A stretch of 64,000 nt of DNA from Nitrosopumilaceae archaeon (GCA_965208905.1 OZ242365.1:352001-416000); one strand, 5' to 3'. Positions 24,972 to 51,864 are shown, numbered from the stretch's first letter. Numbers and translations are program-made. Notes: generated by a model not told the origin, from the sequence alone.

Positions 24972-26456
24972 TGAGCTGGTAACTAAACGTCGCGTAGGTT
25001 ACCGGCCTGCCGTGCGGCAGATGTTGGTGGCGAACCACCATCCAGAGGAGTTACATTGAGACGTTCTTTGTTGGCTGGACTTTGACGCCCGACCTTTGGA
25101 CATCCTGTACCGGCCATCACGTCGTTAACACTTGGAGGAGGCATGCAAGTGCCAAGATGTATCTTCCCTCTCAAGACCATTCCGGCCTTGTCTTGCAGCG
25201 CGTAAACGGCTTGCGCACGCTTAGACCACTGCACTGTGTAAAAAGTGAATAATATGTTGAATGCCGCGTTGACATCCGCGTGCATCAGAACACCGCAATC
25301 ATAACACCGAAACTGGCTGCTTTTGCGCCATGTGTTTGTGTTGCCGCATACACAGCACTGTTGTGAGGTGCCTTTCTGGTCTATCTCGACATACTCTGTA
25401 TTATACTTGAGTGATTGTTGCGCAAGCAAGTTCCGCGCCTCACCACACTTGCTTTGTCGCATCAATTTATTCTTGGCTTTCTGACCCTTCCCTTTTGTGG
25501 TCATGGTTCTGAGGTTCATGCCCTCCATGATGATTTTATCGCACTGCAGCATCAGTTTTTTGGAGAACTTGCGCAGATCATCCATCTGTTTATTTCCCAT
25601 CTTCTTGTAGACCGATTGCAGCTGCGCATGCAAGTTGCGCCACTTGTGAGAATGAAGCTTGCACCGCGCCATCTTCTTTTGTGTTCGCGCGATGTTCCGC
25701 ATGGTATCTTTTTCACGAAGTGTCAGCATCGCAATACCCCCATCCGACTTTCCAACTATAAGCGTGTGCTTGCCGCCCATGTCAATACCCGCGTGTATGC
25801 CGGTACATACACGGTCCGGGACGTGCTCACGAATAGTTACGTGCAACTCGAACTGCCTCTCTTTATCATCGTGATTTGTAACATCCACAATCTTGTAGGA
25901 CTGTGAGGATTTTGGAAGCGTGTCCTTTTGCAGTTTGAAGGGTTTGTCGCACTTTGGGAAGTATACAGTATTACCCTTGGACTTTTTGCCCAATGGAACC
26001 GCGCTGTATAGTGGATATATCTTACGCCCGTACTTTACATGTGCACAACCCTCCATCTTATAGCCTTCTTGTATTGCGCCACGAACCCAAGCTTGGGGGA
26101 TTGTCTGGCATATGGTGGCTACTTTATTGGTATCAAATACCGACAGGCCGGCCCGACGCGCCTCAATTCCGGCATTGAGCCACATGTGCGATTCAGAATA
26201 CATGGAGTCAAAGTATTGTGTTAGTTTGGTTGATGTCTTTAAACGGTACTGCAGAGTCCTAATGATGTACTTTTCATCTTTGTACTTCATATATTACACA
26301 TGATTCGGTGATATTTAAGCGGTGTTCCTATCCAAAGGTTGTACAAAGTCCAGCCAACAAAGAACGTCTCAATGTAACTCCTCTGAATGGCGGTTTGCCG
26401 CCAACATCTGCCATACGGCAGGCCGGTAACCTACGCGACGTTTAGTTACCAGCCCA
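24972..26456 (-). mobile_element. Non-autonomous TIR element carrying tnpB (element B1, 113-bp TIRs)
   Basis: TIR 24972-25084 vs 26344-26456, 106/113 identical, starting TG(A/G)GCTGGTAACTAAA. Perfect 8-bp TSD TTAGTCTA at 24964-24971 and 26457-26464. Confidence 0.93.
24983..26290 (-). CDS. tnpB: TnpB RNA-guided endonuclease (subfamily B)
   Basis: GIDMG, IMEGMNL, TSQQCCVCG...CYDC, HADVNAAFNI. Confidence 0.9.
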   Translation of the reverse strand: MKYKDEKYIIRTLQYRLKTSTKLTQYFDSMYSESHMWLNAGIEARRAGLSVFDTNKVATICQTIPQAWVRGAIQEGYKMEGCAHVKYGRKIYPLYSAVPLGKKSKGNTVYFPKCDKPFKLQKDTLPKSSQSYKIVDVTNHDDKERQFELHVTIREHVPDRVCTGIHAGIDMGGKHTLIVGKSDGGIAMLTLREKDTMRNIARTQKKMARCKLHSHKWRNLHAQLQSVYKKMGNKQMDDLRKFSKKLMLQCDKIIMEGMNLRTMTTKGKGQKAKNKLMRQSKCGEARNLLAQQSLKYNTEYVEIDQKGTSQQCCVCGNTNTWRKSSQFRCYDCGVLMHADVNAAFNILFTFYTVQWSKRAQAVYALQDKAGMVLRGKIHLGTCMPPPSVNDVMAGTGCPKVGRQSPANKERLNVTPLDGGSPPTSAARQAGNLRDV

Positions 26457-26987
26457 TTAGTCTACCTGTATATCTACAGGTAGAATATCACCATGTACAT
26501 CGTTCTTGTCTAAGAAATGATGTTTCTGCCATGACACTTGCACGTTGCCTCTTACTTTGTGTGTACCCTTACCCAGCTCTGATGCTTTGATGGTATAGTC
26601 CTCCTCAAAGTCGAACAGCTCTTGGCGTACATCTTCTTCAGTCAGTTTTATGATGGGCGTAAAATTCTTTGCAACCTGCACCCAGACCCGCTTCTCCTTC
26701 ATGGGATTTACTAGTTTTGGGTTTCTGGTCCAAAATATTGCTGCCTTCTTGTATGATATGATGGGTTTGCCCAGTTTTTGGCGCCTCAACCCTGTAGAGG
26801 TTATATGAACCTCATACTTCATCTTGACGGATACATCGTTGGCATTGTACGCCTCAGTCCAGTTCTGTTCGGTGAATGACTCCCGGTTCTTGCCTTGTAC
26901 AGAAAACTTTACCAGCAAATGTATTGTGTCATCAAGTGAATATGACGACTTTGATGGTATAACCTCTATCTTATCAATTCGATCCAT
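26457..26987 (-). CDS. Hypothetical protein
   Basis: 176-aa ORF; its stop codon lies within the TSD of element B1. Confidence 0.75.
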   Translation of the reverse strand: MDRIDKIEVIPSKSSYSLDDTIHLLVKFSVQGKNRESFTEQNWTEAYNANDVSVKMKYEVHITSTGLRRQKLGKPIISYKKAAIFWTRNPKLVNPMKEKRVWVQVAKNFTPIIKLTEEDVRQELFDFEEDYTIKASELGKGTHKVRGNVQVSWQKHHFLDKNDVHGDILPVDIQVD

Positions 26988-27030
26988 GCTCGGTTGATTT
27001 ATATCCGTAATATGTTCTTTTTTTAATTAT

Positions 27031-27306
27031 ATGAAGGTCGAAGCTATCAGCTCCACCGCCAACGAGGTAGGATTATCATTTACAGATGTGGATATCGCGA
27101 CACTATACATAATACAACACGAACTCCAAAAGAACCCAGATGTGGAGTTTGTGGGAGTTATTCTCAAACATCCCCTCACAAACGAGTGCTGGATGCGGGT
27201 GACCTCAAAATCAGACCCCAAACAAAACATACGCGATGCAGTAGATGCAGCCATCATCTCCGCCAACGAAATGAAAGATATAATGGCCATGGATGTTTTG
27301 GTTTGA
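27031..27306 (+). CDS. rpoL: RNA polymerase subunit Rpo11/L
   Basis: VEFVGVILKHPL; upstream of TFS. Confidence 0.82.
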   Translation: MKVEAISSTANEVGLSFTDVDIATLYIIQHELQKNPDVEFVGVILKHPLTNECWMRVTSKSDPKQNIRDAVDAAIISANEMKDIMAMDVLV

Positions 27307-27307
27307 G

Positions 27308-27613
27308 ATGAAGTTTTGTCCCAGTTGCAATACACGTCTTCGAAAGATGGATGGTGTCCTAATATGCTCAAAGTGCGACCATAAGGAAGACGGCTCAAGC
27401 GTCACATCTCAACATACAGATGTGGTTCCCGAATTGGATGTTCTAACCGAGGAGGATGGTAAAGATATGCTGCCAACCACAAAGATAGACTGTGACAGAT
27501 GTGGTCATGATGAGGCAGTATGGTGGATGCTACAGACTCGTAGTGCAGATGAGCCCACAACACAGTTTTACAGATGTGTCAAATGCGGCCACACTTGGCG
27601 TGACTACTCTTAA
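27308..27613 (+). CDS. tfs: Transcription factor S
   Basis: MKFCPSC...CSKC, QTRSADEP, CVKC. Confidence 0.92.
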   Translation: MKFCPSCNTRLRKMDGVLICSKCDHKEDGSSVTSQHTDVVPELDVLTEEDGKDMLPTTKIDCDRCGHDEAVWWMLQTRSADEPTTQFYRCVKCGHTWRDYS

Positions 27614-29031
27614 AGATCTGTTAAATGAAACTCGGCGTGTAAGGCTTGTACGACGGTCTTTACATCAGAGTTTTTTATCACAAAGGAGAGATTAATCTCT
27701 GAGGAGCCCTGCGTTATCATTATTACGTTTACATCTTTGTTGCTTACAGTATTGAATACTCGAGATGCTGTTCCAACGGTTCCACGCAGTCCCAAACCTA
27801 TCAGGGATACGACGGCTACATTGGTGGTGACATTAAGGTTTTTGATCTTTTTGCCCAAGTGTTCCATCTCTAAAACATTTACGGCCTTATGCAAGTCCTG
27901 ATTCTTCAATACAATACTGATACTGGACTCTGACGGGTTCTGCGATATCATCATTACGCTGATACCTGGTGCGGCCAGTGTACCAAATATTGCAGCTGCC
28001 GTACCCGGAGAGGCCGCCATTCCAAATCCCTGCATGTCGATAAGGCCGCTATCCCTTATCATACTGACACATTTTATTGTGTTATCAACTATATGAGAGG
28101 GCACAATGAGTGTTCCAGAATTTTTAGTGTTGGTGGCGCTGCGTATGCGCAGAGGTATCCCTCTGTCTAAGACAGGCTCAAAGGTACGTGGGTGTATCTC
28201 CCTTTCGCCAAACATCGACATTTCACGAGCTTCAGAGTATGATATCTTTTGTAATGTTTGTGCCTCAGGTACGATATATGGATCGGCAGTCATCATGCCA
28301 TCCATCTCACCCATAAGCCATACTTGATCAGCATCAATACATGCAGCGATTATGGTGGCCGTATAGTCAGAGCCGCCTCTCCCAAATGTTGTAATGCGGC
28401 CATGCTGGTCGGCAGCAGTATATCCCCCCAACACAGGAACCACGCCTTTATCGATGTGTTCATTTAGATTCTTTGATACCCGTAGTTTGGTGGTATCCAT
28501 TAATGGTTTGGACTTGCCAAATCTTGAATCAGTGAGTATGCCGGCCTCCTTACCACTGAGAGGTACTGTATCCACACCCATAGATTGTAGTGCCGAGGCC
28601 ATCAAGAGTGTGGAGAACCGCTCACCAAAAGAGACCAGATAGTCTCGTGAGCGGGGGGTCTCTTCAGATAACAGTATGAGGCCATCCACCAATACTTGTA
28701 GTTCATCAAATGTTTGGTCTAGTGATTCATCAAGGTTTTGTGATATCGTATGATCAGTTATTATGGTATCTTTTAGATTGTCAGATGTTGTTCTGTGATA
28801 GTCTATTATATCATGGAGTATTTTGATTATCTCTTGCCGCTCGCCAGTCTCCATACTAGAAGACAGTTTTAGTAGATGGTTGGTGGTCTCTCCCATAGCA
28901 GAGCAGACTACCACTAGTTTGTAGTGGTGCGATATCTCAGATAGATATTTTGTGATCTTTGCAATGTCATCTGCTCCAGAGATGGTAGAACCGCCGTACT
29001 TTATTACCAGTCTTGGTCTATCAGAAGGCAT
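27610..29031 (-). CDS. lysC: Aspartate kinase
   Basis: KYGGS, SFGE, TTFGRGGSDYTA, two ACT domains, QGSSEINLS. Confidence 0.93.
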   Translation of the reverse strand: MPSDRPRLVIKYGGSTISGADDIAKITKYLSEISHHYKLVVVCSAMGETTNHLLKLSSSMETGERQEIIKILHDIIDYHRTTSDNLKDTIITDHTISQNLDESLDQTFDELQVLVDGLILLSEETPRSRDYLVSFGERFSTLLMASALQSMGVDTVPLSGKEAGILTDSRFGKSKPLMDTTKLRVSKNLNEHIDKGVVPVLGGYTAADQHGRITTFGRGGSDYTATIIAACIDADQVWLMGEMDGMMTADPYIVPEAQTLQKISYSEAREMSMFGEREIHPRTFEPVLDRGIPLRIRSATNTKNSGTLIVPSHIVDNTIKCVSMIRDSGLIDMQGFGMAASPGTAAAIFGTLAAPGISVMMISQNPSESSISIVLKNQDLHKAVNVLEMEHLGKKIKNLNVTTNVAVVSLIGLGLRGTVGTASRVFNTVSNKDVNVIMITQGSSEINLSFVIKNSDVKTVVQALHAEFHLTDL

Positions 29032-29792
29032 CAGGACTCTGTACGGGGAGCCATGTAAAAGTGAATATGACCCATGTTGGATATGTCAAATCCCACTCGG
29101 AGGGGTTTCTTGTTGGAGAACTCACATGTTATTATACTTGAAGCACCGCCCACGGCCTTTACCACGGGGGTCAGATATTCGAGGCTATAAGTACCCTCAC
29201 TCTGTTGTTCCGCCGATATGGTAACAGAGTTCTCTGTATCTTGTGGTACATCTATACTGGCCTCACCAGAGTCACCCTTACCTGAAAAGGTGGCATTGTT
29301 GTTGTCTATCTGTATAGTCACATAGTCGGTCACGACGCTGACATCTCCTAGTATTTTGTCTAGTGTTGCTGGTGGCATTGTTATCTTTGCATCAAATGTT
29401 AATTTTGGTAGAGGCGCTTCAGTAGCCAAGCTCTCTACTAGTCTCATCTTGTAACGTTTACTGGTACCCATATACAATTGTAGAAAGTTGTCATCGGTTA
29501 ATGTAATTTTGACATCATCACTCTTTGATGCTCGGCGAATCAGTTTTGCAAGCTCGTCTATACGTACACCAAACCTTATCTCCGAGTCACAGATATAGGA
29601 GGCAAATGCCGCGTTCGGCCAATACACATCTATCAATGCTATATGTGAGGGGTCCATTCCCTTGAAGGATATCCCTTCGGTGGTGGCCTCAAAGGTCGCC
29701 TCCTCGACAAGTGTGGCAATGGCGCCAACCACAGCCTTTAGATCATTAGGCCCGCTGGTCTTTGCCTCAAAAGTCAATAAATCTACTATCAA
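29031..29792 (-). CDS. pcn: DNA polymerase sliding clamp PCNA
   Basis: MDPSHIAL, YSLEYL, FYMAPR. Confidence 0.93.
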   Translation of the reverse strand: MIVDLLTFEAKTSGPNDLKAVVGAIATLVEEATFEATTEGISFKGMDPSHIALIDVYWPNAAFASYICDSEIRFGVRIDELAKLIRRASKSDDVKITLTDDNFLQLYMGTSKRYKMRLVESLATEAPLPKLTFDAKITMPPATLDKILGDVSVVTDYVTIQIDNNNATFSGKGDSGEASIDVPQDTENSVTISAEQQSEGTYSLEYLTPVVKAVGGASSIITCEFSNKKPLRVGFDISNMGHIHFYMAPRTES

Positions 29793-30005
29793 ATACTCTA
29801 TTTTTAAGTCTTATAGGATATGTTGGATCTCTTACACAAATCTGAGTGATACTACATCTTTTTGCACAAGTACGCCGGAGCAGTGCACCCCAGCGGCCCG
29901 TAATAGAACCACACCGTACCAGACTCTTTTATTTGGAACGGCGCCGCGCGACCACCTCATGACTCAATGAAAACAAAGTATGTGGCCGTATCTGGGGCCA
30001 TATGA

Positions 30006-30179
30006 CTAGCCGTGCCGCTTGTCCAGCTGCTCTATGACAGTCCCTATCAACTGGGAGTTCGCCTGTATGGCCGCCGCATTCGCCTCTATCTTTGCCGCAT
30101 TTGACTCCAGACGCTCAAGTGCCTTAGCTAGGTTCTGGTTTGTGCGCCGTAACTCCTGTATGAGTGTTTGCTCGTCCAT
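30006..30179 (-). CDS. Small coiled-coil hypothetical protein
   Basis: Heptad pattern LESNAAKIEANAAAIQANSQLI; TATA-like sequence upstream. Confidence 0.55.
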   Translation of the reverse strand: MDEQTLIQELRRTNQNLAKALERLESNAAKIEANAAAIQANSQLIGTVIEQLDKRHG

Positions 30180-30341
30180 GCTACCTAAACATAAGTCAGA
30201 CGATATATTAATCATAACGCCTCGCGGTTCATAGTAGAATACGGTGTGTTTTCTGAGGATGCCAGGGCATCCGGCACCCGCGATTAGGATGGAAATTCTA
30301 AAAGCCTAAACAATTTATAATAGTTTATTGGTATTCAAGCA

Positions 30342-31796: not shown

Positions 31797-32004
31797 GTGT
31801 CTCGTATTTGTAGTTTGATTAGATGCAAGTAAGAGAATCAATACCCATCATGTATAACGTATCTACAAAGACTCGACTACAAAACCGTACAATGATGCTG
31901 CGGGTGGAGCGCAAGGCGCCAGAGTTGGAGGCATTTACCTGTGAGACAAGCCCCGATATGTTTAAACTATAATTAATCGCCACAATATCATACTGTGATA
32001 TATT

Positions 32005-32772
32005 ATGGCTGGGAAATTGTACATTGTGGGTGTGGGTCCTGGTCACCATGACCACATGACTTTTCGTGCCAAAGAGGCCATAGCAGAGAGTGACACCATT
32101 GTAGGGTATACTACATATGTAAATCTGGTCGAAGATCTGATAGTAGATAAAGACGTATACAGGTACGCCATGACACAAGAGGTCGAGAGAGCTCATCAGT
32201 GTATAGAGCTGGCAAAGTCTGGCAGTATTGTATCGTTGGTGTCCAGTGGAGACCCAGGAATATACGGTATGGCCGGTCTAATATACGAAGTACTGGCAAA
32301 GTCTGGTTGGAATCCAGATACGGACCTTCCTGTGGAGATAATCCCTGGTGTTTCGGCTCTAAACTCCTGCTCTGCCATAATAGGCTCCCCATTAATGGCC
32401 GACTTTGCCGTTCTAAGTATGAGTGATTTACTAGTACCCTGGGAGATAATTACAAAACGTGTAGAGTCTGCTGCAGCAGGAGACTTTGTAATTGTAATAT
32501 ATAATCCCGCCAGTAAGAAGCGCATTCACCAGCTGCAAGACTCTAGAAATATAATACTAAAGTATAGAAAACCCGAGACTCCTGTAGCCATAATAAAAGG
32601 GGCATATAGAGACTCTCAGACTGTCATACTAACAACACTCGATGATCTTCCAAAACATTCAGAGCATCTAGGTATGATAAGCACTGTAATAGTTGGTAAC
32701 TCATCCACATATACATACAAAGATCTAATGATAAACCCCCGCGGCTACAAATCAAAGTATAACATTACGTGA
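32005..32772 (+). CDS. cbiH: Precorrin-3B C17-methyltransferase
   Basis: GVGPG, SSGDPGIYGMAG, SDLLVPWE, YNPAS, PRGY. Confidence 0.92.
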   Translation: MAGKLYIVGVGPGHHDHMTFRAKEAIAESDTIVGYTTYVNLVEDLIVDKDVYRYAMTQEVERAHQCIELAKSGSIVSLVSSGDPGIYGMAGLIYEVLAKSGWNPDTDLPVEIIPGVSALNSCSAIIGSPLMADFAVLSMSDLLVPWEIITKRVESAAAGDFVIVIYNPASKKRIHQLQDSRNIILKYRKPETPVAIIKGAYRDSQTVILTTLDDLPKHSEHLGMISTVIVGNSSTYTYKDLMINPRGYKSKYNIT

Positions 32773-33805: not shown

Positions 33806-33884
33806 GATTGTATGTATGAGAAATTGTATAAACCTATGTTCTATGATTTGTCAATTTTTATACGGAGAGTAAAAAGATGTAGTC

Positions 33885-34442: not shown

Positions 34443-34461
34443 CTCTCGTTATTCTAATAAA

Positions 34462-40384: not shown

Positions 40385-40459
40385 ACTATTAAAATCACAG
40401 AATGTTATAGAACAATAAGTGTCTGTTACATTTTTTAAACGTACTTTGGGCTTTAAAAT

Positions 40460-41089: not shown

Positions 41090-41428
41090 TGTCATGATTA
41101 GCAGTATTTGGTTGCGCAGGCAAATAGTAGAACCGGGAAGGGTATGCTGTATTATATTTGCAGGCATCATCTAAAACCGTTAATTGACTTCCAGTTTAGA
41201 GGTAAGATATCTGTTTAGCGCTCTAATATACACACGGCATGTGGTATGGCGGCGCAGAGCACAATGGCAGAACCATACACAAGGAGGCTGTACGTTATAT
41301 GTGATTTATTGTTGATATGTGCAAATTTTCAAAGTCGTAGAACATCAAAGGGTGATGGTATTTGAGATATTCGCTTGACTGTACCATTTTCCCAAATGAA
41401 CAAAAGGTCATATGGCATTGTGTAGACT

Positions 41429-42325
41429 CTATACGTCAATTACCAACAGGTCTTGAGCGGCAATCACTGAATCGTGTATGCGACAGGCCTCCTTTAGATG
41501 CGTATCAGCATCTTTGTATCTGGTAGAGAAGTGTGTAAGTATCAGATTTTTGACTTTGGCATCTTTAGCCAATGTTGCCGCTTCTTCTGATGTGGAGTGG
41601 CCTGTTTTAATGGCGCGTTGTGCCATATTACTGGCAAACGTAGAGTCAAATATTAGATAGTCACAGCCGGCAAAGAAGCGCCTCAGTTCAGGACTAGGCC
41701 TGGTATCTCCCGAATATCCTATCATCATACCAGGCCTAGATGGGCCTAGAACCTGTTCGGGCGTGACCTGGCCGCCCTGTATAGATATACTGTTGCCCTT
41801 TTGCAGTTCCCCCCACAAGATGCCCTCTGGTACTCCCAACTTGTGAGCTTTTTGTGTATCAAACCTGCCCGCTTTATCACGCTCTTTAAACAGATACGCA
41901 AGCGCCCGAATGCTATGATCTGCTACACAAGCATGTACTGCATATGATGCGGTCTCGCATATCTCGCCTTCAGTTATATCCTCAACAACGACCTCAAAGC
42001 GCGGCACAGTGCCCAACATACGCATATTCTCCTGAACAAACTTCTCTATACCTAGGGGTCCGTATATTGATAGTCTCTTGTCACGATCTTGTAAAGACAT
42101 GGTCTGTATCATGCCTAAAAGTCCCAGACAGTGATCTCCGTGCAGGTGGGATACAAATATGGACATTCTCTTATTCCAGCCCAAACCCGCTGTGCGATAA
42201 GATATCTGTGATCCCTCGCCAACATCAAACATCAATATCTCACCATCCCTCTGTACACATACACATGGGGAGGCGCGTTGCTCGGTAGGGACTGCAGCAG
42301 ATGTACCCAAAAATACAATCTTCAC
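41429..42325 (-). CDS. rnz: Ribonuclease Z
   Basis: FLGT, SHLHGDH, SGDTRP, GHST, THFS. Confidence 0.95.
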   Translation of the reverse strand: MKIVFLGTSAAVPTEQRASPCVCVQRDGEILMFDVGEGSQISYRTAGLGWNKRMSIFVSHLHGDHCLGLLGMIQTMSLQDRDKRLSIYGPLGIEKFVQENMRMLGTVPRFEVVVEDITEGEICETASYAVHACVADHSIRALAYLFKERDKAGRFDTQKAHKLGVPEGILWGELQKGNSISIQGGQVTPEQVLGPSRPGMMIGYSGDTRPSPELRRFFAGCDYLIFDSTFASNMAQRAIKTGHSTSEEAATLAKDAKVKNLILTHFSTRYKDADTHLKEACRIHDSVIAAQDLLVIDV

Positions 42326-42395
42326 TATAGTGTAACATTATATCCTGCTTATTATCGGCATCGGTTCGGATTCTTCTTACAGGGAACTGTCCCAT

Positions 42396-43718
42396 CTACA
42401 GCGCGTGTCCCAAGACAGCGCGTAGATTGACAGCCTGTTGTACAACAGGTGTTGGTGGCGAACCACCATCCAGAGGAGTTACATTGAGATGTTCTTTGTT
42501 GGTTGGATGTTGACACCCATCCTTTGGACAGCCTGTGCCGGCCATCACGTCATTAGCACTTGGAGGAATCATGCAAGTGCCAAGATGTATCTTTCCTCTC
42601 AAGACCATTCCAGCCTTGGCTTGCAGACTATATGCGGTCTGCGCGCGCTTGCTCCAAGATATTACATCTGGAACGTATAGTATATTGTACGCGGCATTGA
42701 TGTCCGCGTGCATTAATACACCACATGTATGGCACCAAAACCTACTGCTCTTGCGCGTTGTGTTCTTACCACCGCACATACAGCACTGTTGAGATGTACC
42801 ACATTGATTGGTTTCCACATATTCTATACTGTGTTGCAGGGAACTCTGCGCGATGTGGCTTCGCGCCTCACCACATTTGGACTGCCGCATTAGACGGTTC
42901 TTGTTTTTCTGACCCTTCCCTTTTGTGGTTATGGTTCTGAGGTTCATGCCCTCCATGATGATTTTGTCGCACTGCGCGAATAGTTTTTTGGCGAACTTGC
43001 GCAGCCTGTCCGTCTGCCTATTTCCCATCTTACGGTATATACATTGCAGTTGCGCATGCAGGTTGCGCCACTTGTGTGAATAAAGTCTGCAATGAGACAT
43101 CCTTTTCTGTATTCGCGCTATGTTCCGCATGGTATCTTTTTCACGAAGTGTCAGCATCGCAATACTCCCATCCGACTTTCCAACAATGAGTGTGTGCTTG
43201 CCACCCATGTCTATGCCCGCATGTACGCCGGTCGTCTTGCGCTTTGGGATGTGTTCACGTATAGTAATATGCAACTCGAACTGCCTCTCCTTATCACTGT
43301 GGTTTGTAACATCCACAAGCTTGTATAACTGGGATGTATTCGGGAGTGTGCCTTTCTGTAGTTTGAAGGGCTTGTCGCATTTTGGGAAATACACCGTATC
43401 ACCCTTGGACTTCTTACCCAACGGGACCGCGCTGTATAGTGGATATATCTTACGCTCGTACTTTACATGCGCACAACCTTTCATCTTATGACCTTCCCGT
43501 ATGGCGCCGTGAACCCAGGCCTGTGGTATACCCTGACACATGGTGGCTACTTTATTGGTGTCGAACACTGACAGACCGGCCCGACGCGCCTCAATCCCCG
43601 CATTGAGCCATATGTGTGATTCCGAATACATCGAGTCAAAATATCTGGTGAGTTTGGTTGATGTCTTGAGACGGTACCGCAGAGTCCTAACAACGTACTT
43701 TCCACCTTTATACTTCAT
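42396..43718 (-). CDS. tnpB: TnpB RNA-guided endonuclease (subfamily B)
   Basis: GIDMG, IMEGMNL, CCMCG...CHTC, HADINAAYNI. Confidence 0.9.
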   Translation of the reverse strand: MKYKGGKYVVRTLRYRLKTSTKLTRYFDSMYSESHIWLNAGIEARRAGLSVFDTNKVATMCQGIPQAWVHGAIREGHKMKGCAHVKYERKIYPLYSAVPLGKKSKGDTVYFPKCDKPFKLQKGTLPNTSQLYKLVDVTNHSDKERQFELHITIREHIPKRKTTGVHAGIDMGGKHTLIVGKSDGSIAMLTLREKDTMRNIARIQKRMSHCRLYSHKWRNLHAQLQCIYRKMGNRQTDRLRKFAKKLFAQCDKIIMEGMNLRTITTKGKGQKNKNRLMRQSKCGEARSHIAQSSLQHSIEYVETNQCGTSQQCCMCGGKNTTRKSSRFWCHTCGVLMHADINAAYNILYVPDVISWSKRAQTAYSLQAKAGMVLRGKIHLGTCMIPPSANDVMAGTGCPKDGCQHPTNKEHLNVTPLDGGSPPTPVVQQAVNLRAVLGHAL

Positions 43719-43786
43719 GTATTATTCACCACTCGGTGATATTTAAGCTTCTTGTTTGCCCAACATCTAAAGCAGGATGTCAATCT

Positions 43787-43820
43787 ACGCGCTGTTTTGG
43801 GACACGCGCTGTTTTGGGAC
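43787..43820 (+). repeat. Perfect 17-bp tandem repeat inside TIR (putative transposase-binding iterations)
   Basis: ACGCGCTGTTTTGGGAC x2; degenerate copies in the other B2/B3 ends. Confidence 0.85.
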
Positions 43821-43849
43821 AGTTCATCCTACAGACATACAAGGTATTC

Positions 43850-44220
43850 TAAACTCAAATCTGGTCGTATCAAGGTATAGCTGTAAGGTCTTGGAGTATA
43901 CTACTAAGAGTTTATGCGTAATTGCACAACTTGGCAGTATTGGATCATTAAATCGGTGGCGTACAGCCATTCGTCCCTGCCGCGGAGGGTGACCATTGTA
44001 TCGAACGCGTCCTTTTTGGTCGGCTTTATGTTTTCCCACAAGATTCCGTTAGAGTCCATCATGTTTACCAATCTTGCCGTTTTGTTCCGCTTGTCCTGGT
44101 CGGACTCAAAGTCGCGAAAAATGACCCCGCAGAACAACGTGCGGTACGAAAACCTCAAAGGTGTTGAATCGAGGGTGGTATAGCATGTGCTCTGCCTCCC
44201 GCGCTACATCTTCCTTCATC
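43850..44220 (-). pseudogene. Frameshifted probable PIN-domain gene remnant
   Basis: Joining three frames gives ...FEVFVPHVVL/GVIFRD...YATDLMI/LPSCAITH, resembling VapC-like motifs. Confidence 0.35.
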
Positions 44221-44305
44221 CTGTGCCAAAGTCTGGCAGGTACTAAGAGATGATCTGTTATGTACGACCTGCTAACTTAATATTGGGAGCGGCGATGAAA
44301 AAGTC

Positions 44306-44977
44306 TTGATGAGTACAAATAATCCGAGGCTGGTACTGGTGGACTTTACTGCTAGACTGCCAGATGGTTCTGTAATCGACACCACACAGAGTGATCACAG
44401 CACAGATATACCCACTAAACCTCTAAGGCCAAGATTAGTATCTTTAGGGCACCCATCATTTGTAGTAGTCAAGGGTTTAGAAAGGGCACTCGAAGATGCC
44501 GAATTAAACGTACCACAAACCATAGAGGTGGAACCAAAGGATGCCTATGGTGAATGGAATCGTAAGTTGCTGCGGATGGTGACCGCCAGAAAACTAGAGG
44601 ATCCAGAAAAATCTGCCGTAGGGGATGAAATAAAGATTAACGGTAGAACAGGATTCATTAAATTTATGAGTTCTGGGAGAGTCCAGGTAGACTACAATCA
44701 CAGGTATGCAGGTAAAAAGATACGATATGACTTTACTGTTACCGACCTTTTGGATGCCGATAAGGCAAAGGTAGAAGCCATCTTGGAAGAGGCTGGTTTT
44801 GGCGATGAGCCCAACTACCAACTTGATGAGGGTTCACTGGAGATATCAATACCAAACGATATGCTTAAGGACGAAAAATTTCAGAACAGGATATTCCAGC
44901 TTCAAATGAACATATTCCGTTTTGTATCAGATCTCAAAGACATACGATTCACAATAGAGTTTACAGCGCCAGCTTAG
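44306..44977 (+). CDS. FKBP-type PPIase (archaeal long type, SlyD-like)
   Basis: VIDTT, KGLERAL, PKDAYGE, VDYNHRYAGK. Confidence 0.88.
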   Translation: MMSTNNPRLVLVDFTARLPDGSVIDTTQSDHSTDIPTKPLRPRLVSLGHPSFVVVKGLERALEDAELNVPQTIEVEPKDAYGEWNRKLLRMVTARKLEDPEKSAVGDEIKINGRTGFIKFMSSGRVQVDYNHRYAGKKIRYDFTVTDLLDADKAKVEAILEEAGFGDEPNYQLDEGSLEISIPNDMLKDEKFQNRIFQLQMNIFRFVSDLKDIRFTIEFTAPA

Positions 44978-46029
44978 ATTATGCCGCTCTCCAGAGCCAG
45001 TCTCTTGGCGGAGGATGCATCTAGTGATACCTCTTTTAGTATCGTGTAGCGCTCTGGCCGTAGGCTCTGGGCCATGCATAGTGCCTGGACAACATCCTCA
45101 TCAGAGAGCCCTATGTCGGCAGCAGTTGTGGGGGCGCCCACATTCTTAAGGGCAGTAGTTATACTCTGATGGTCCAAGCCATGTAGTTTGGCCATTACTA
45201 TAGAGCCAATTCCGCACTTTTCACCGTGCAGTCCCTTCCCTGGAGTTATCTTGTCCAGTGCATGTGAGAAGAGATGCTCAGCTCCCGAACACGGTCGGCT
45301 ACTACCGGCTATACATGATGCCACACCCGCACTGATCAAAGCTTCCACAATAAGACGTACTTCTGGGCCCTTCTCGGCAAAGGTGGCCGCATTCTCCATA
45401 ATCATGTTGGCGCTCATCATGGCCAAGCTGGCAGAGTATCTCCCATAGTACTCGCCGGTTTTTTCGTGAGATAGTTGCCAGTCCTGGACGGCTATTATAT
45501 TAGCCACCAAATCACCACAGCCACTGGCCAGTAATTTGGCAGGGGCGCTCTTTATGATATCCAAATCAACAAACACTCCCAAAGGCGACCTCGCCACTCT
45601 AGAGTGGGGACGATCTCCCTTTACAGACACAAAGGGGCTGGCCATACCATCATGTGAGGCTGCCGTAGGAACACTGACGTATGGTCTATCCAGACTGGTA
45701 GCGGTCATCTTTGCGATATCAACGGACCTGCCTCCGCCTATACCCACCACAACATCTGGTCTATCCTGCGTGATGGCGCTCTTGGCCATCGTAAATGACA
45801 CAGTATTGTTGTCCTGAAAGATATGCCATGTGTATCTTATATTTGCCGCCTCCAGTGAGGCCTCAATTATACTACCTAGAACTCTTTTGACGTTCGCCCC
45901 AGAGACCAACGATGCGCAGCCGCCCTTTATCAAATGTATTAAAAAGTCTCCTATCTCTTGTATGTTATTCTCGCCTATAACTATACGGCGGGGCAGCTCC
46001 ATAATATGAGGGGCATTTGACACCAACAT
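44974..46029 (-). CDS. egsA: sn-glycerol-1-phosphate dehydrogenase
   Basis: GGGRSVD, PTAASHDG, SRPCSGAEHLFSHALD, HGE. Confidence 0.95.
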   Translation of the reverse strand: MLVSNAPHIMELPRRIVIGENNIQEIGDFLIHLIKGGCASLVSGANVKRVLGSIIEASLEAANIRYTWHIFQDNNTVSFTMAKSAITQDRPDVVVGIGGGRSVDIAKMTATSLDRPYVSVPTAASHDGMASPFVSVKGDRPHSRVARSPLGVFVDLDIIKSAPAKLLASGCGDLVANIIAVQDWQLSHEKTGEYYGRYSASLAMMSANMIMENAATFAEKGPEVRLIVEALISAGVASCIAGSSRPCSGAEHLFSHALDKITPGKGLHGEKCGIGSIVMAKLHGLDHQSITTALKNVGAPTTAADIGLSDEDVVQALCMAQSLRPERYTILKEVSLDASSAKRLALESGII

Positions 46030-46090
46030 ACATCAGAATTATAAAGTTATTTAAAAGGGTGCCATACTAACAGAGTTACAAGGTGAACTT

Positions 46091-46720
46091 TTGGAGATCA
46101 TACAGGATAAAATTCTACATGGGACAACTACAGTTGGCATAAAGGCCGATGAAGGTGTGGTGCTATGCGCCGATATGCGAGCCAGCGCTGGATACTTTAT
46201 CGCCAACAACAACACAATGAAGATACAAAAGATAGACCATCATGCCGGTCTCACATTGGCCGGCGGTGTAGCTGACGCTCAAAATATAGTAGACATCCTT
46301 CGGTATCACGCAAACTTACACCGTCTAACAAATAATATCCCCATACCAATCAGATCATTGGCCCGTCTTACATCCCTACTGTTTCATAGAAATCGTGGAT
46401 ACCCGTTTATCGCGGATATTCTAGTGGGTGGATATGATAGTGACGGAGCTGCCTTATTCAATATAGACATGTTCGGCTCCGTAGAGGAGAAGCCATTTGT
46501 CACCACAGGAAGTGGTTCGCCGGTTGCCTATGGTGTTCTTGAGAACGAGTATACGGACAATTTGACCATACAAGATGCCAAAAGAGTTGCGTTGCAAGCA
46601 GTCAAGGCGGCCATAGTCAGGAATATTGGTACCGGAGATGGCATCAACATTGCCATTATAGATAAAGATGGATTCCGTCTACTAACCGAAGAACGGAAGA
46701 AGGCCATAATCAACCTCTAG
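46091..46720 (+). CDS. psmB: Proteasome beta subunit
   Basis: HGTTTVG, AGGVADAQ, TGSGS. Confidence 0.95.
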   Translation: MEIIQDKILHGTTTVGIKADEGVVLCADMRASAGYFIANNNTMKIQKIDHHAGLTLAGGVADAQNIVDILRYHANLHRLTNNIPIPIRSLARLTSLLFHRNRGYPFIADILVGGYDSDGAALFNIDMFGSVEEKPFVTTGSGSPVAYGVLENEYTDNLTIQDAKRVALQAVKAAIVRNIGTGDGINIAIIDKDGFRLLTEERKKAIINL

Positions 46721-46727
46721 AGGTACA

Positions 46728-48656
46728 ATGTCCAAAAAGAGTGATAGGGATAATCCCAATCAAAACATAATTGCAACCATACTTCAAAAGATACCACCGG
46801 GTTCCCAGATAACAAAGATTGAGTATGAAGGGCCCCGCATAGCCATATACACCACATCCCCAAAGTTCCTATTAGAGAGAAACAAGACATTATCGAATTT
46901 AGTAAGCACCATAAAGAAGAGAATAGTAGTACGGACAGACCAATCCATACGCAAGCCCGAAGCAGAGGCCAAAAAGATTTTGACAAAACTTGTACCCAAA
47001 GATGCAAAACTGCAAGGTGCCTTCTTTGATGATACCATAGGCGAAGTAACTATAGAGGTCAAGCGTCCATGGCTCTTGCAGAAGAACCCAGAATTTTTAC
47101 ATAATGATGTTGTAGAGCAGTTGGGGTGGCGTATCCGTGTGCGAAAAGCCACAACTACATCCTCATCTACCATTCAGACCATAAACTATATGCTAAAAGT
47201 TTCGACGCAGGAACGCTCAAAGCAGCTCCGCCAGATTGGTGATGACATATTTCGGCCCAAGATAGCACCAAAGTCCGAAGTGTCGCTACTGACATTGGGC
47301 GGATTCGGACAGGTGGGCCGCTCGTGCATGTTGCTGACTACGCCTGAGAGTCGCATTCTGCTGGACTGTGGTGTCAATCCTGGAGCACGCACCGCCAGTG
47401 AGGCATACCCTCGTCTGGACTGGGCAAATATCGCACTATCAGATATAGATGCCGTGGTGATAGGGCATGCGCATCTGGATCATACTGGTTTTCTGCCGGT
47501 GTTGTGTAAATACGGGTATGGAGGTCCCATATACTGTACGGAACCCACACTCCCCATGATGAATCTTATACAGTTGGATGCCATAAAGGTGGCTAGCGCG
47601 CAAGGTAGAATACCATTATACTCAGAGCGGGATGTAAAACAGGTGATGAAGCAGTCCATCACACTTTCGTATAATATGGTTACCGACATATCACCAGATA
47701 TAAAGTTGGTATTGGCCAATGCAGGCCACATATTGGGCTCGGCATTGTGCCACTTTCACATAGGTAATGGGGATCATAACTTTGTATACTCGGGCGATAT
47801 AAAATTTGGTAAGAGTATTCTGTTTGAGGCGGCAGACTGGCGCTTCCCCCGGGTGGAGACGCTGCTTATAGAGAGTACATACGGTCTAAAAGAGGACATA
47901 CAACCCAATCGTCAAGAGGTGGAGTCGGCATTCGTCAATGTGGTAAACCAGACTCTGGCCGATGGTGGCAAAGTACTCATACCCATACCCGCTGTAGGGC
48001 GTGCGCAAGAGATAATGATGGTAATTGATCATTACATGAAGGCCGGCAAGATGGTCGAGGCTCCGGTCTTTACGGAAGGCATGATATCTGAGGCATCAGC
48101 CATACATGAGTCATATCCGGAGTATTTGGCCCGAGAACTACGCCAAAAGATACTAGAGACTGATGATAACCCCTTTGACTCAGAGTACTTTACCAATATA
48201 GAACATACTAGTTCTCGGGGCGAGGCCCTGCGTGAAGACTCACCGGGAATAGTTTTGGCCACATCAGGAATGTTGGAGGGCGGTCCTGTTCTGGAGTACT
48301 TTAAGAATATAGCTCCCCACAAACAGAACAAGATATTGTTTGTATCATATCAGGTGAACGGCACAATGGGTAGACGCGTTCTAGATGGCGCACACCAAGT
48401 CTCAATGTTGGGCAGAGGAGGAAAGGTTGAGGCTGTAACCATAAACGCAGGTATAGAGAAGTTGGATGGTTTCAGCGGCCACAGTGACTACAACCAACTA
48501 ATGTCATTTGTACATAGGCTACGGCCAAAACTCAAGCGTGTATTAGTAAATCATGGTGAGAGGCGAAAGTCTGAAAACCTGGCAGCGAACATTCGGCGCA
48601 TGTATAGACTGCATGCGCACAACCCTCAGATACAAGAGGCAATAAAATTATTTTAA
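46728..48656 (+). CDS. fttA: beta-CASP ribonuclease aCPSF1 / transcription termination factor FttA
   Basis: KH domains (EYEGP), HAHLDH, AGHILGS, FSGHSD; follows psmB. Confidence 0.95.
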   Translation: MSKKSDRDNPNQNIIATILQKIPPGSQITKIEYEGPRIAIYTTSPKFLLERNKTLSNLVSTIKKRIVVRTDQSIRKPEAEAKKILTKLVPKDAKLQGAFFDDTIGEVTIEVKRPWLLQKNPEFLHNDVVEQLGWRIRVRKATTTSSSTIQTINYMLKVSTQERSKQLRQIGDDIFRPKIAPKSEVSLLTLGGFGQVGRSCMLLTTPESRILLDCGVNPGARTASEAYPRLDWANIALSDIDAVVIGHAHLDHTGFLPVLCKYGYGGPIYCTEPTLPMMNLIQLDAIKVASAQGRIPLYSERDVKQVMKQSITLSYNMVTDISPDIKLVLANAGHILGSALCHFHIGNGDHNFVYSGDIKFGKSILFEAADWRFPRVETLLIESTYGLKEDIQPNRQEVESAFVNVVNQTLADGGKVLIPIPAVGRAQEIMMVIDHYMKAGKMVEAPVFTEGMISEASAIHESYPEYLARELRQKILETDDNPFDSEYFTNIEHTSSRGEALREDSPGIVLATSGMLEGGPVLEYFKNIAPHKQNKILFVSYQVNGTMGRRVLDGAHQVSMLGRGGKVEAVTINAGIEKLDGFSGHSDYNQLMSFVHRLRPKLKRVLVNHGERRKSENLAANIRRMYRLHAHNPQIQEAIKLF

Positions 48657-48923
48657 TCCGTATTCAGGCTTCCATATACGCACATCTTTGGGTGCAATTA
48701 TAATTCTCTCATCACCTAGACGAGCAATCTCGGCATCCTCCTTCCTTGTAATTGCGTATAACTCTTCCACCATGCTTCGCAGCTCCTGAACATCTTTCTG
48801 TGACATGGGCCCGACACGTATTATGAGAATCAGGCCGTTTTGGATATCCTTCTTTATGATGTCAATATCAGTATGATCATGTACAGTAAAGGCTTTCAGG
48901 TATAATGGTTTTGTTGGGGCCAT
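48648..48923 (-). CDS. sepF: Cell division protein SepF
   Basis: IARLGDERIIIAP. Confidence 0.8.
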   Translation of the reverse strand: MAPTKPLYLKAFTVHDHTDIDIIKKDIQNGLILIIRVGPMSQKDVQELRSMVEELYAITRKEDAEIARLGDERIIIAPKDVRIWKPEYGLK

Positions 48924-49062
48924 GGTATATTATAATTCTTGTGACAAAAAAATCTTGTGGATCGTTGTTGCTTAGAAAAATTAGACTATAGCACACAATA
49001 CCACTACTGTGGGGCTACATTCACAAGATGGTTATAAATTGGGAGGAAAAAACCATAATACC

Positions 49063-50376
49063 ATGTCTGTAAAAGAGTCGTATAGTGATATTTTTGAAAA
49101 ACTAGAGAGGCACCATAAATGGTTCAACGAGTCTTTGCCTCTTATAGCCAGTGAGAATATACCCAGTCCGGCAGTTCGGGAGGTGTTGGTTTCAGACTTT
49201 GGAAATAGGTATGCCGAGGGGTGGCCCGGTGAGCGAGTTTATGCAGGGTGTACCTACATAGATGAGGTTGAAGTAATATGCATGCGGCTGGCCCAAAAGT
49301 TATACAACGCGGAGTTTGCCGATGTACGGCCGCCATCCGGCGTACTAGCCAATCTGGCCATATATTCAGCGTTTGCACAGCCGCATGATATTATGATGGC
49401 GCCATCCATACCGGCCGGAGGACACATCTCCCATGGCAAGCGCGAGCACGCAGGGACTGCAGGGTTGGTACATGGACTTGATGTGGAGTTCTATTCCTTT
49501 GATGCCACACAGATGAATATTGATGTTGATAAGACAAAGCAGAAGGTACGACAGATGGTACAAGATGGCAGAACCCCCAAGATGGCCATGTTTGGCGGCT
49601 CACTCTTTCTGTTCCCTCATCCCGTAAAAGAGCTGGCAGACTTTCTAAAAGGGTATGATATTCACATAAACTATGATGCAGCCCATGTGGCGGGCCTCAT
49701 CGCCGGGGGTGTATTTCAAGACCCTCTAAGAGAGGGAGTAGACACCATGACCATGAGTACACACAAGACACTCTTTGGACCTCAGGGAGGGCTGATATTG
49801 GGGTTCGAGAGGCACATGGAGGATATAAAAAAATCGGTATTCCCGGGCACGACTAGCAGCCATCACATACATCACATGGCAGCTAAGGCCGTTGCATTTG
49901 CTGAAATGTTAGAGTTTGGTGTGTCATACGCACAACAGGTGGTTGCAAACGCAAAGGCATTGGCAGAGTCTTTGAGCGATATGGGATTCAAGGTGCTGGG
50001 CGAAGATAACGGATTTACCAAGTCGCACCAGGTGGCAGTCAACGTTTTGGATTATTCGGACGGGGGCAATGTGGAGGCGGACTTGGAGAAGGCCAACATT
50101 ATAGTGAATCGGCAGTTGATACCTGGTGATATAAAGGCGGGCCGAAACTACTTTCATCCGGGCGGTATACGTCTAGGTGTTTCTGAAATTACAAGGTTAG
50201 GTATGAAGGAATCTGCCATGAAGGAGGTGGCCAATTATATCAAACAGGTAATAATAGACAAAAAGAATGCCGATACAATAAAGGATAGTGTTAGGTTATT
50301 CCGGCAGGACTACCAAAACGTGCAGTATTGTTTTGATGGGAAGCTTGGCGCCTACGAGTACATCAAACTGCGATGA
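49063..50376 (+). CDS. glyA: Serine hydroxymethyltransferase
   Basis: LIASEN, YAEGWPG, GGHISH, STHKT, GIRLG. Confidence 0.96.
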   Translation: MSVKESYSDIFEKLERHHKWFNESLPLIASENIPSPAVREVLVSDFGNRYAEGWPGERVYAGCTYIDEVEVICMRLAQKLYNAEFADVRPPSGVLANLAIYSAFAQPHDIMMAPSIPAGGHISHGKREHAGTAGLVHGLDVEFYSFDATQMNIDVDKTKQKVRQMVQDGRTPKMAMFGGSLFLFPHPVKELADFLKGYDIHINYDAAHVAGLIAGGVFQDPLREGVDTMTMSTHKTLFGPQGGLILGFERHMEDIKKSVFPGTTSSHHIHHMAAKAVAFAEMLEFGVSYAQQVVANAKALAESLSDMGFKVLGEDNGFTKSHQVAVNVLDYSDGGNVEADLEKANIIVNRQLIPGDIKAGRNYFHPGGIRLGVSEITRLGMKESAMKEVANYIKQVIIDKKNADTIKDSVRLFRQDYQNVQYCFDGKLGAYEYIKLR

Positions 50377-50422
50377 TTACACTATATCTATTGGTCCTTT
50401 CAAAATTCGACGATATATCATA

Positions 50423-51864
50423 GGAACTGTCCCATCTACAGCGCGTGTCCCAGGACAGCGCGTAGATTGACATCCTATTTTAGATGTTGGGCAAACAAGA
50501 AGCTTAAATATCATCAAGTGGTAAACCACACATGAAGTACAGAGGCGAAAAGTACGTCATTAGAACTCTTCGGTACCGTCTCAAGACATCAACCAAACTC
50601 ACCAGATATTTTGACTCGATATATTCGGAATCACACATATGGCTCAATGCGGGGATTGAGGCGCGTCGGGCCGGTCTGTCAGTATTCGACACCAACAAAA
50701 TAGCCACCATATGCCAGACAATCCCCCAAGCTTGGGTTCATGGCGCGATACGGGAAGGCCACAAGATGGAGGGATGTACTCACGTAAAGTATAGCAAAAA
50801 GGTTTACCCCCTGTTTAGTAGCGTGCCGCTCGGCAAAAAGTCCAAGGGTGACACGGTGTACTTTCCAAAGTGTGATACTTCTTTCAAACTGCAAAAAGGG
50901 TGTCTACCTGACACATCACAGTCGTATAAAATCGTAGATGTGTCGAATAGTACAGACAGGGAAAGACAGTTCGAGCTGCATGTAACTGTACGTGAACATG
51001 TCCCGGACCGTGTATGTACCGGCATACATGCGGGTATTGACATGGGCGGCAAGCACACACTGATTGTTGGAAAGTCTGACGGTACAATTGATATGCTTAC
51101 ATTGCGCGAGAAGGATACTATACGGAATATCGCACGGATTCAAAAGAAGATGTCCCATTGCAGACTTCACTCCCACAAGTGGTGTACACTGCACGCGCAG
51201 CTGCAAAGCACATACCGCAAGATGGGGAATAGGCAGACAGACAAGCTGCGTAAGTTTGCCAAAAAACTGTTCGCGCAATGCGATAAAATCATCATGGAGG
51301 GGATGAACCTCAGAACCATGACCACAAAAGGGAAGGATCAGAAAAACAAGAACCGTCTAATGCGACAATCAAAATGTGGCGAGGCGCGGGCCTTGCTGGC
51401 GCAACAATCACTTAAACATAACACCGAGTATGTCGAGATTGACCAGAAATATACATCACAGTTATGCTGTGTGTGCGGTAGTAAAAACACGGGGCGCAAA
51501 AGCAGCCAGTTCAGGTGTTATGATTGTAATGTTCTGATGCACGCTGATATAAACGCCGCATTCAACATCCTTTTCACTTTTCGTACTGTACAGTGGAGCA
51601 AGCGGGTGCAAGCCGTTTACGCACTGTACAACAAGGCCGGAATGGTCTTGAGAGGGAAGATACATCTCGCGACACTCACTATACCCAGTGTCGTTGGTGA
51701 TGTGATGGCCGGTACAGGCTGTCCAAAGGATGGGCGTCAAAGTCCAACCAACAAGGAACGTCTCAATGGAGCTCCTCTGGATGGTAATTTGCCAACATCT
51801 GTGTTAACACAGGATGTCAATCAACGCGCTGTCTTGGGACACGCGCTGTAGATAGGACAGTTCC
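50423..51864 (+). mobile_element. Non-autonomous TIR element carrying tnpB (element B3)
   Basis: 54-bp TIR 50423-50476 / 51811-51864, 51/54 identical, same type as B2. No matching TSD (ATATCATA vs CACAAATT). Confidence 0.88.
50532..51851 (+). CDS. tnpB: TnpB RNA-guided endonuclease (subfamily B)
   Basis: GIDMG, IMEGMNL, CCVCG...CYDC, HADINAAFNI; TATA-like CTTAAATA ~25 bp upstream. Confidence 0.9.
   Translation: MKYRGEKYVIRTLRYRLKTSTKLTRYFDSIYSESHIWLNAGIEARRAGLSVFDTNKIATICQTIPQAWVHGAIREGHKMEGCTHVKYSKKVYPLFSSVPLGKKSKGDTVYFPKCDTSFKLQKGCLPDTSQSYKIVDVSNSTDRERQFELHVTVREHVPDRVCTGIHAGIDMGGKHTLIVGKSDGTIDMLTLREKDTIRNIARIQKKMSHCRLHSHKWCTLHAQLQSTYRKMGNRQTDKLRKFAKKLFAQCDKIIMEGMNLRTMTTKGKDQKNKNRLMRQSKCGEARALLAQQSLKHNTEYVEIDQKYTSQLCCVCGSKNTGRKSSQFRCYDCNVLMHADINAAFNILFTFRTVQWSKRVQAVYALYNKAGMVLRGKIHLATLTIPSVVGDVMAGTGCPKDGRQSPTNKERLNGAPLDGNLPTSVLTQDVNQRAVLGHAL

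Follow-up and report, generated by a model that had tools for sequence, protein, structure and literature searches.

Three elements carrying tnpB genes, named B1, B2 and B3, were analysed in a 64,000-nucleotide stretch of the genome of a marine Nitrosopumilaceae archaeon (G000:C1:352001-416000, hereafter the window); the genome, G000, is a single contig of 2.21 Mb and is 99.6% complete. B1-B3 are probably cargo elements of a TnpB-RNA module which has swapped its ends among DDE transposons, is moved in trans and takes its guide from the flank. Within the terminal inverted repeats (TIRs) of a DDE transposon, each element holds an intact tnpB gene together with an archaeal promoter and an omegaRNA-like 3' region, and would most likely have been moved in trans, with 8-bp duplications, by IS6-like transposases (SWIM plus DDE_Tnp_IS240) encoded elsewhere in G000. 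The promoter-tnpB-RNA module would have acquired new outer ends on several occasions, switching between IS6-like specificities and, in a sister genome, adopting IS1595-type ends. On the right side the exchange would have occurred directly after a conserved CCAACAT-hairpin. Each new TIR would provide a terminal hairpin closing 3-5 nt before the tip; the RNA scaffold could thus reach the end of the element and the guide could come from the flank, that is, from the copy of the target-site duplication (TSD) and the bases that follow it.

The three genes are intact. Their products align from end to end, much as the original prediction had it, and are 79-81% identical (79% and 81% to B1). Positions below are those of the window unless given as genome positions.

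B1 TnpB open reading frame (ORF): 24983-26290, minus strand, 435 aa; stop codon inside the right TIR.
B2 TnpB ORF: 42396-43718, minus strand, 440 aa.
B3 TnpB ORF: 50532-51851, plus strand, 439 aa.

Pfam Cas12f1-like_TNB was matched by all three at 44.9-56.1 bits (cut-off 26.3) and OrfB_IS605 by B1 and B2 at 35.1 and 35.3 bits and by B3 at 30.1 (cut-off 30.5); B1 also passed NCBIfam guided_TnpB (113.7 bits, cut-off 100). In the alignment of B1 with 9yyg, which is an AI-designed nuclease and the solved chain that matches best, residues D170, E256 and D339 coincide with its GVDLG, VED and DRDxN motifs, and ISDra2 TnpB (8bf8, 8exa, 8h1j) matches over the same residues with an E value of 1.7e-5. 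The RuvC triad and the zinc-finger cysteines (C312/C313, C315, C329, C332) are invariant in B1-B3. Solved TnpB structures cover residues 132-348 of B1 and leave residues 349-435 uncovered, a stretch overlapping with the conserved nucleic-acid structure described below. By profile, triad and zinc finger, B1-B3 are assigned to TnpB, and RNA-guided cleavage dependent on a transposon-adjacent motif (TAM) is predicted for them. The TnpB complement of G000 comprises 11 full-length copies of this B subfamily, ~20 copies of a second subfamily, and others.

The elements and their ends have the following coordinates, hp1 to hp3 being hairpins of the 3' region.

Element B1: 24972..26456, minus strand, non-autonomous TIR element carrying TnpB; tips TGGGCTGGTAAC (left) and TGAGCTGGTAAC (right, read inward).
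B1 TSD, right-end copy: 24964..24971, TTAGTCTA on the plus strand; second copy 26457-26464, 8/8 identical.
B1 left end: 26344..26456, minus strand, inverted copy of ~113 nt of the right end, including hp1, hp2 and hp3.
B1 inverted arms: 24971-25084 and 26344-26457, 114 nt, 94% complementary.
Element B2: 42383..43826, minus strand; tips TGAACTGTCCCA (left) and GGAACTGTCCCA (right).
B2 TSD: copies 42375-42382 and 43827-43834, 7/8 identical.
Element B3: 50423..51864, plus strand; tips GGAACTGTCCCA at both ends, no TSD.
B3 inverted arms: 50423-50482 and 51805-51864, 60 nt, 92% complementary.

The elements measure 1.44-1.49 kb and encode TnpB alone, with no transposase, and all three ORFs end within the right inverted repeat; the left end of B1 is matched in tblastn by TnpB residues 398-435. 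In B2 the inverted repeat is 45 nt long (91% complementary), and the tips stand further out, beyond a 1-nt indel. TSDs identical at 8/8 positions were found in c2211166, c769407 and c1380945 as in B1. These duplications were compared with the matching loci of G083, a genome of the same genus, which lack B1, B2 and B3 and have flanks 96-98% identical (97-98% at the B1 locus). A single copy of the 8-mer is present there at the B1 locus, with one single-nucleotide polymorphism (SNP), and at the B2 locus, indicating that the repeats of B1 and B2 are true target-site duplications. At the B3 locus the element is absent and 52 nt of target DNA are kept which were lost from G000. Among 11 loci compared, eight are precise empty sites with a single 8-mer, B3 shows the deletion and two, c1948594 and A102957, are rearranged in G083 and were unusable as empty sites. 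Next to B3, 19 nt past its right end, lies an insertion sequence (IS) remnant of ~1 kb (51884-52867, plus strand) whose two ORFs, 51923-52300 and 52237-52554, overlap in different frames and encode an HTH_32 domain followed by an rve integrase core; it is also absent at the matching G083 locus, and copies up to 87% identical exist elsewhere in G083.

The tips of the TnpB elements of G000 were sorted into five types.

T1: TGGGCTGGTAAC, in B1 and c1948594.
T2: TGGGCTGTGACG, in c250723 and c2211166.
T3: GGAACTGTCCCA, in B2, B3 and c1692734.
T4: GG(A/C)(G/A)CTGTCAAA, in three copies.
T5: GGAACTGGTGCA, at the left end of c741838.

The original prediction opposed the ends of B1 to those of B2/B3 as two types of TIR. 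The quoted tips read as stated and the outer 20-45 nt differ, but the two types are not wholly unrelated: their inner parts are homologous (...CGCGTAG(G/A)TT(A/G)AC...CCTG...CAGATGTTGG) and the difference is confined to the outer stretch.

The genome was then considered as a source of transposases acting on these tips. A profile search of G000 gave 0 matches to Y1_Tnp (PF01797) and Resolvase (PF00239), profiles that matched 6/14 and 12/14 control genomes, respectively; G000 has neither a Y1 nor a serine TnpA. Thirteen open frames of 355-462 aa with SWIM-type fingers scored above the DDE_Tnp_IS240 cut-off (45.6-58.4 bits versus 27). Their best NCBIfam model is IS6, covered over the full profile at 86-92 bits, which is below its cut-off of 125. 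They form three groups, 38-65% identical between groups; D157224 and D1101066 share 41% identity only. Three tip types stand beside such genes. A T3 tip precedes D1101066 by 184 nt, and a closely similar tip follows D1285267; a T1 tip lies 84 nt past the stop codon of D157224, and a 714-bp element lacking TnpB has T1 tips as well; T5 is found at each end of two 3.6-kb elements (genome 1337692-1341293 and 1851328-1854929) which carry a transposase with methylase and nuclease-like cargo. The tip motifs described for IS6 (GG tips, cTGTt / caaa) fit B2/B3 (GGAACTGTCCCA) and T4 (GGCACTGTCAAA) and partly B1 (TGGGCTGGTAAC), in TIRs far longer than 15-20 bp, and B1-B3 lack the transposase of their own expected of an IS6 member, encoding TnpB alone. 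No transposase was found within the 11 full-length B elements, and the sole adjacency, an IS6-like gene at genome 2095856-2097109 beside a truncated tnpB, is an insertion cutting tnpB. The 170-bp miniature inverted-repeat transposable elements (MITEs) with a further tip, T6, some of which have an 8-bp TSD, indicate that transposase-less elements of the IS6-like kind do move.

Several observations on IS6-like elements were made besides. The two T5 elements and a third at genome 18695-22054 are IS6-like transposons of 3.4-3.6 kb with a DNA methyltransferase and a nuclease-like ORF, the third being flanked by an 8/8 TSD, GAATTTTT. The insertion in tnpB (locus L029, genome 2094919-2097109) is an IS6-like element with a T6 end inside a B-subfamily tnpB whose first ~135 codons are missing. 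The T6 MITEs are at genome 347829-347999, 470002-470172, 470822-470992, 474681-474851, 489410-489580, 644882-645052, 1779678-1779848 and 1928312-1928482. Two have an intact 8-bp TSD, and at several others the flanking 8-mers are, by eye, the reverse complement of those at another copy (for instance 489580 with 645052 and 1779848 with 1928482), a pattern expected from inversions between MITE copies or from intramolecular replicative transposition. Solo T3, T1 and T4 ends at genome 421369, 422919 and 424739, 5-9 kb past the window, fall in a span of 3.4 kb, one of them accompanied by a 3' fragment of TnpB, and may mark a graveyard or a hotspot of such elements. Past the right end of c1692734 (genome ~1691300-1691400), ~30 nt from the tip, a long ACTAC/CACTA pentanucleotide run was seen.

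The phylogeny of the nuclease was compared with the distribution of the tips, as the original prediction had called for. In a tree of the nuclease part (first 350 alignment columns, 17 rows, a 56%-identical copy as outgroup), c1948594 (T1) groups with c2211166 (T2), B1 (T1) groups with T3, T4 and T5 copies, and B3 (T3), separated from B2 and c1692734, joins the three T4 copies (97/98 support). Approximately unbiased (AU) tests of one clade per tip type rejected a single clade for T1 (p 0.006) and for T2 (p 0.017) and did not reject it for T3, the B2/B3 type (p 0.11). The tree and the tips are thus in conflict. Homology between tip types stops directly behind the conserved CCAACAT-hairpin hp2, where the proposed exchange would have taken place.

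Ends of another transposon family were found on relatives of the same nuclease. The second TnpB subfamily of G000 (~20 copies of 1.47 kb, ~30% identical to B1) has tips GGGAATTATATAC and 8-bp duplications; a TSD of at least 7/8 accompanies 14 of 21 pairs of IS1595-type tips, one pair being part of an autonomous IS. Four elements of 2.1-2.8 kb with an IS1595 transposase are bounded by the GGGAATTATATA tip; the two of these transposases that were scanned exceed the cut-offs of Pfam DDE_Tnp_IS1595 (138 bits) and NF033547 (176 bits, cut-off 75). In G083, four of the five full-length B-subfamily copies (68-78% identical to B1), at L005, L010, L012 and L014, end in ...ATAATTCCC, an IS1595-type tip, and by reading the TSDs are 8/8 at L012 and 7/8 at L014. 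From tips common with transposase-bearing copies and from the 8-bp TSD, the ends of the second subfamily and of the G083 B copies are classed as IS1595-type. The IS1595-tipped relatives in G083 are evidence of end exchange that is independent of the tree. Two further elements with such tips lie near or across the edges of the window: a 1420-bp element of a third TnpB subfamily at 58-1477 (plus strand; ~26% identical to B1, tips GGGAATTATATACCTGGGTA, TSD 7/8) and a 1472-bp TnpB element at 63597-64000 (minus strand), extending to genome 417068 (TSD 7/8).

The right ends of B1-B3 are predicted to fold into a series of hairpins, of which the last is encoded by the TIR.

B1 omegaRNA-like structured region: 24972..25190, minus strand, over the 3' end of the ORF and the right TIR.
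B1 substructures: hp1 25025-25040, ACAT, hp2 (CTGCCG-CA-CGGCAG) 25007-25020, TIR-encoded hp3 24975-25006, 3-nt tail.
B2 hp2 (CTGTTG-TA-CAACAG) 42435-42448 and TIR-encoded hp3 42386-42434: region 42386..42448, minus strand.
B3 hp2 (CTGTGT-TA-ACACAG) 51799-51812 and TIR-encoded hp3 from 51813: region 51799..51860, plus strand.

The right ends agree exactly with the first description in their CCAACA(T/C) motif, their hairpins and their closing stems (GGTAAC..GTTACC in B1; CTGTC..GACAG around ATCTAC..GTAGAT in B2). An alignment of 22 right-end regions (16 from G000, five from G083 and one from G018) gave a consensus of 36 pairs in 8 helices, which is 94.7% paired versus 33-50% with slid partners; 11 pairs change on both sides, and the observed values were reached by 0/500 shuffles. 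These results argue for a conserved structure and not for chance. The covariation of hp2 (helix 8), on which the earlier reading had leaned, persisted in this larger set, pairing being kept with two-sided changes in 4/6 pairs. Behind hp2, the stretch to the tip is 25-71 nt long and forms one closed hairpin, hp3, in 15 of 17 distinct right ends, T2 ends having an extra hairpin; 0-3 nt lie between hp2 and hp3 and 3-5 nt between hp3 and the tip, the z-scores of hp3 being -1.5 to -7.9 against mononucleotide shuffles (B2: -26.3 kcal/mol, z -4.3). The tip-proximal bases are paired in 19/20 TnpB right ends versus 8/23 IS6-like ends without TnpB; TnpB right ends are not distinguished from other ends by the length of unpaired 3' sequence, and only moderately by the paired fraction. 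The tips shared with DDE transposons, the AU conflict, the IS1595 tips of G083 and the 15/17 right ends with hp3 together support the proposal that the module moves between the ends of different helpers and rebuilds its last stem.

An Rfam search of the structured region returned no meaningful match (E up to 1), and inspection by eye for a pseudoknot of the 3-4-nt tail with upstream conserved bases found no pairing consistent across tip types. In alignment columns 101-125 (B1 ~25125-25150, minus strand), within the coding tail of the TnpB C-terminus, two sequence forms occur, GCACTTG...CAAGTGC and CGACACT...AGTGTCG. Each makes its own 6-7-bp stem, uncalled by RNAalifold since the register shifts by one column, and these form-specific stems add to the case for an RNA structure. 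When assembled contigs of four sponge metatranscriptomes were compared with window 42300-52000, neighbouring genes were covered and the TnpB 3' regions were represented by short pieces only, including 104- and 117-nt contigs of a T2-type copy; the contigs carry no information on ends, strand or level.

The origin of the guide was addressed from the flanks of the insertions. In the main IS1595-tipped subfamily, oriented by tnpB, a G stands directly 5' of the left TSD copy in 12/12 sites and A-T-N-G fits 8/12, and no mirror motif follows the right TSD copy at these 12 sites. In G065 the same flank position is a G in 5/6 sites; in the B subfamily, a G is located two bases 5' of the TSD in 6/7 sites. 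The third subfamily, which has the same IS1595 tips, has two sites without the G. A one-sided motif which follows the orientation of tnpB fits a TAM for a guide starting with the TSD, not a symmetric target preference of a DDE transposase, and it favours a flank-derived guide over one taken from the TIR. The latter alternative, entertained in the original prediction, holds that the scaffold ends at or just after the conserved hairpin, that the inner TIR is the guide and that TnpB targets related IS ends. Conservation does stop at CCAACAT-hp2, the sequence beyond being variable throughout, as expected of a guide, and the left ends hold the same sequence inverted, so targets would exist. Such a guide would, however, match the ends of its own element; all tip types have internal base pairing in the 25-71 nt that follow hp2, unlike a free guide of ~16-20 nt; the T4 right end has a closing arm which its left end lacks, suggesting selection on the transcript; and the orientation-specific motif sits in the flank, where the TAM of a flank guide should be. 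A guide within the TIR is therefore considered unlikely.

The empty alleles of G083 were also examined for traces of cleavage. They differ from G000, within the first ~13 nt of the right flank, by a 9-nt indel at B1 (window 24950-24971) and by a 3-nt indel and SNPs at B2 (window 42360-42382). Over eight loci, 17/160 positions of the TAM+16 window had changed versus 58/1004 outside (Fisher p 0.035, indel positions counted singly). As cleavage scars or escape changes these differences are weak, since the background rate already predicts a change at 7/8 loci, and no claim is made from them.

Several points weigh against TnpB-RNA cargo elements with swapped ends, trans mobilisation and a flank guide. 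Concerning the exchange, the T3 result of the AU test leaves the B2/B3 type compatible with a single clade, and gene conversion among tnpB copies could also produce a conflict between tree and tips. Concerning the helpers, the IS6-like transposases fall short of the NCBIfam threshold; T2 and T4 have no transposase-bearing partner in G000; no transposase lies inside or next to B1-B3, mobilisation in trans being deduced solely from shared tips; and some transposase-bearing elements, whose boundaries were defined in part, have unlike left and right ends. Concerning the RNA, 5/8 left ends are also paired at the tip-proximal bases; and autonomous IS1595 ends carry tip-proximal palindromes of their own, so that for this class hp3 may belong to the TIR rather than to the RNA. 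Concerning the guide, the flank motif was found post hoc in 12 + 6 + 7 sites, two B-subfamily sites in G083 lack the B motif, and the controls without TnpB are few (9 elements, with a G at that position on 7/18 sides).

It could also be supposed that the TnpBs are relics or exapted genes, trapped by MITE-like derivatives of DDE transposons, the nuclease and its RNA having no role in the life cycle of the element. Two of the 11 full-length B copies have an in-frame stop and several further copies are truncated, and the metatranscriptome contigs cover the neighbouring genes and only short pieces of the TnpB 3' regions. This explanation appears improbable: 9/11 full-length copies are open, the catalytic and zinc-finger residues of B1-B3 are invariant, the 3' RNA structure is kept by compensatory changes, the module survives repeated exchange of its ends and a flank motif oriented by TnpB exists. 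That no swapping occurred, the tip types being a gradual mutational series of one ancestral TIR bound by one transposase, would agree with the (T/G)GnnCTG common to all IS6-like tips, with the homologous inner TIRs of B1 and B2/B3 and with the T3 test, but is very improbable given the type-specific hexamer after CTG, repeated subterminally (GTCCCA, GGTGCA, GGGAAA, GTTCAG, others), the recurrence of each type on elements without TnpB and on transposase-bearing ones (T2 and T4 without such a partner in G000), the divergence of the associated transposases, the rejected T1 and T2 clades and the IS1595-type tips of the G083 B subfamily, which cannot fit one series.

Elements with swapped DDE ends and a TnpB-RNA cargo have partial counterparts among known systems, compared here with the portions of the published sources that bear on them. 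Altae-Tran et al. (2023, PNAS, PMC10691335), who name IS630, described TnpBs that are associated with DDE transposases and bounded by inverted terminal repeats, as well as solo TnpBs having the ends of transposase-bearing copies; a 2026 review names ISL2, IS630 and IS1031 (PMC13565253). As in these associations, TnpB lies here within inverted repeats and the tnpB 3' end lies near the transposon end, within the 250 bp allowed (PMC10691335). Unlike the branches described in those portions, the ends here are IS6-like and IS1595-type, the helper is never adjacent, no DDE gene is in the same element, and TnpBs sharing 68-82% identity have ends that differ in specificity and in family. In one supplementary file of that study, IS6 and IS1595 appear as profile names only, and its other supplementary files may bear on the point; among the papers listed in searches for TnpB with the IS1595 or IS6 family, none describes such elements, judging by titles and the beginnings of abstracts.

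IS200/IS605 elements, according to the sections of PMC13565253 and PMC3119063 devoted to them, have no TIRs and no TSD, carry subterminal hairpins and use a Y1 TnpA. B1-B3 resemble their IS1341 group in the single tnpB with an RNA-coding 3' end and in the many dispersed copies without an adjacent transposase, and differ by TIRs of 45-114 nt, an 8-bp TSD confirmed by empty sites and a genome without Y1 or serine TnpA. For IS6, the parts of Varani et al. (2021, PMC7986276) on family traits give GG or TG tips, a CTGT motif and an 8-bp duplication, and canonical members of 700-890 bp with inverted repeats of 15-20 bp, with one member carrying a passenger gene and two MITEs. B1-B3 and their partners are like the IS6 (IS26) family in the 8-bp TSD, the G-rich tips with CTGT and the DDE_Tnp_IS240-type transposase of the partner elements; unlike IS6, these partners are cargo transposons of 3.4-3.6 kb with SWIM fingers, the TIRs are 45-114 nt long and the cargo is TnpB. 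Fanzor, in the corresponding part of PMC13565253, is one nuclease-RNA lineage in TIR/TSD transposons of several superfamilies, with the RNA reaching the transposon end. The present elements likewise place a nuclease-RNA unit inside TIR/TSD transposons of more than one family, and differ in being prokaryotic (Nitrosopumilaceae), in their TnpBs of typical size, in a variable 8-bp TSD instead of TA/TTAA and in exchange among copies within one genus. DDE-associated TnpB being already known, the novelty lies in the pair of end families, in a strictly trans arrangement within a genome that has no TnpA, in ends exchanged repeatedly between close relatives and in a terminal stem that is rebuilt.

Cas12 descends from TnpB, whose biology is known almost wholly through IS200/IS605 and IS607, where scarless excision explains the usefulness of a guide taken from the flank. 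Here, the TnpB complement of a whole genome rides DDE-type TIR elements with 8-bp duplications, in a genome with no TnpA. The near-identical nucleases with different ends form a natural series in which the RNA is fixed up to CCAACAT-hp2 and the TIR hairpin is replaceable, and these fixed and replaceable parts bear on the engineering of shorter or modular omegaRNAs and on the origin of Fanzor-like associations. As a more tentative proposal, which may well prove wrong, TnpB-omegaRNA would be a portable retention or homing cassette passing between unrelated DDE families, its last stem being rebuilt each time and its guide beginning with the 8-bp TSD, and copies would persist mainly where a TAM adjoins the 8-mer on its 5' side. 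If so, the system would be a prokaryotic counterpart, possibly a forerunner, of the association of Fanzor with many transposon superfamilies, and RNA-guided retention would work for DDE elements which leave no scarless donor site. The motif beside the TSD makes it testable whether TnpB helps DDE transposons to persist.

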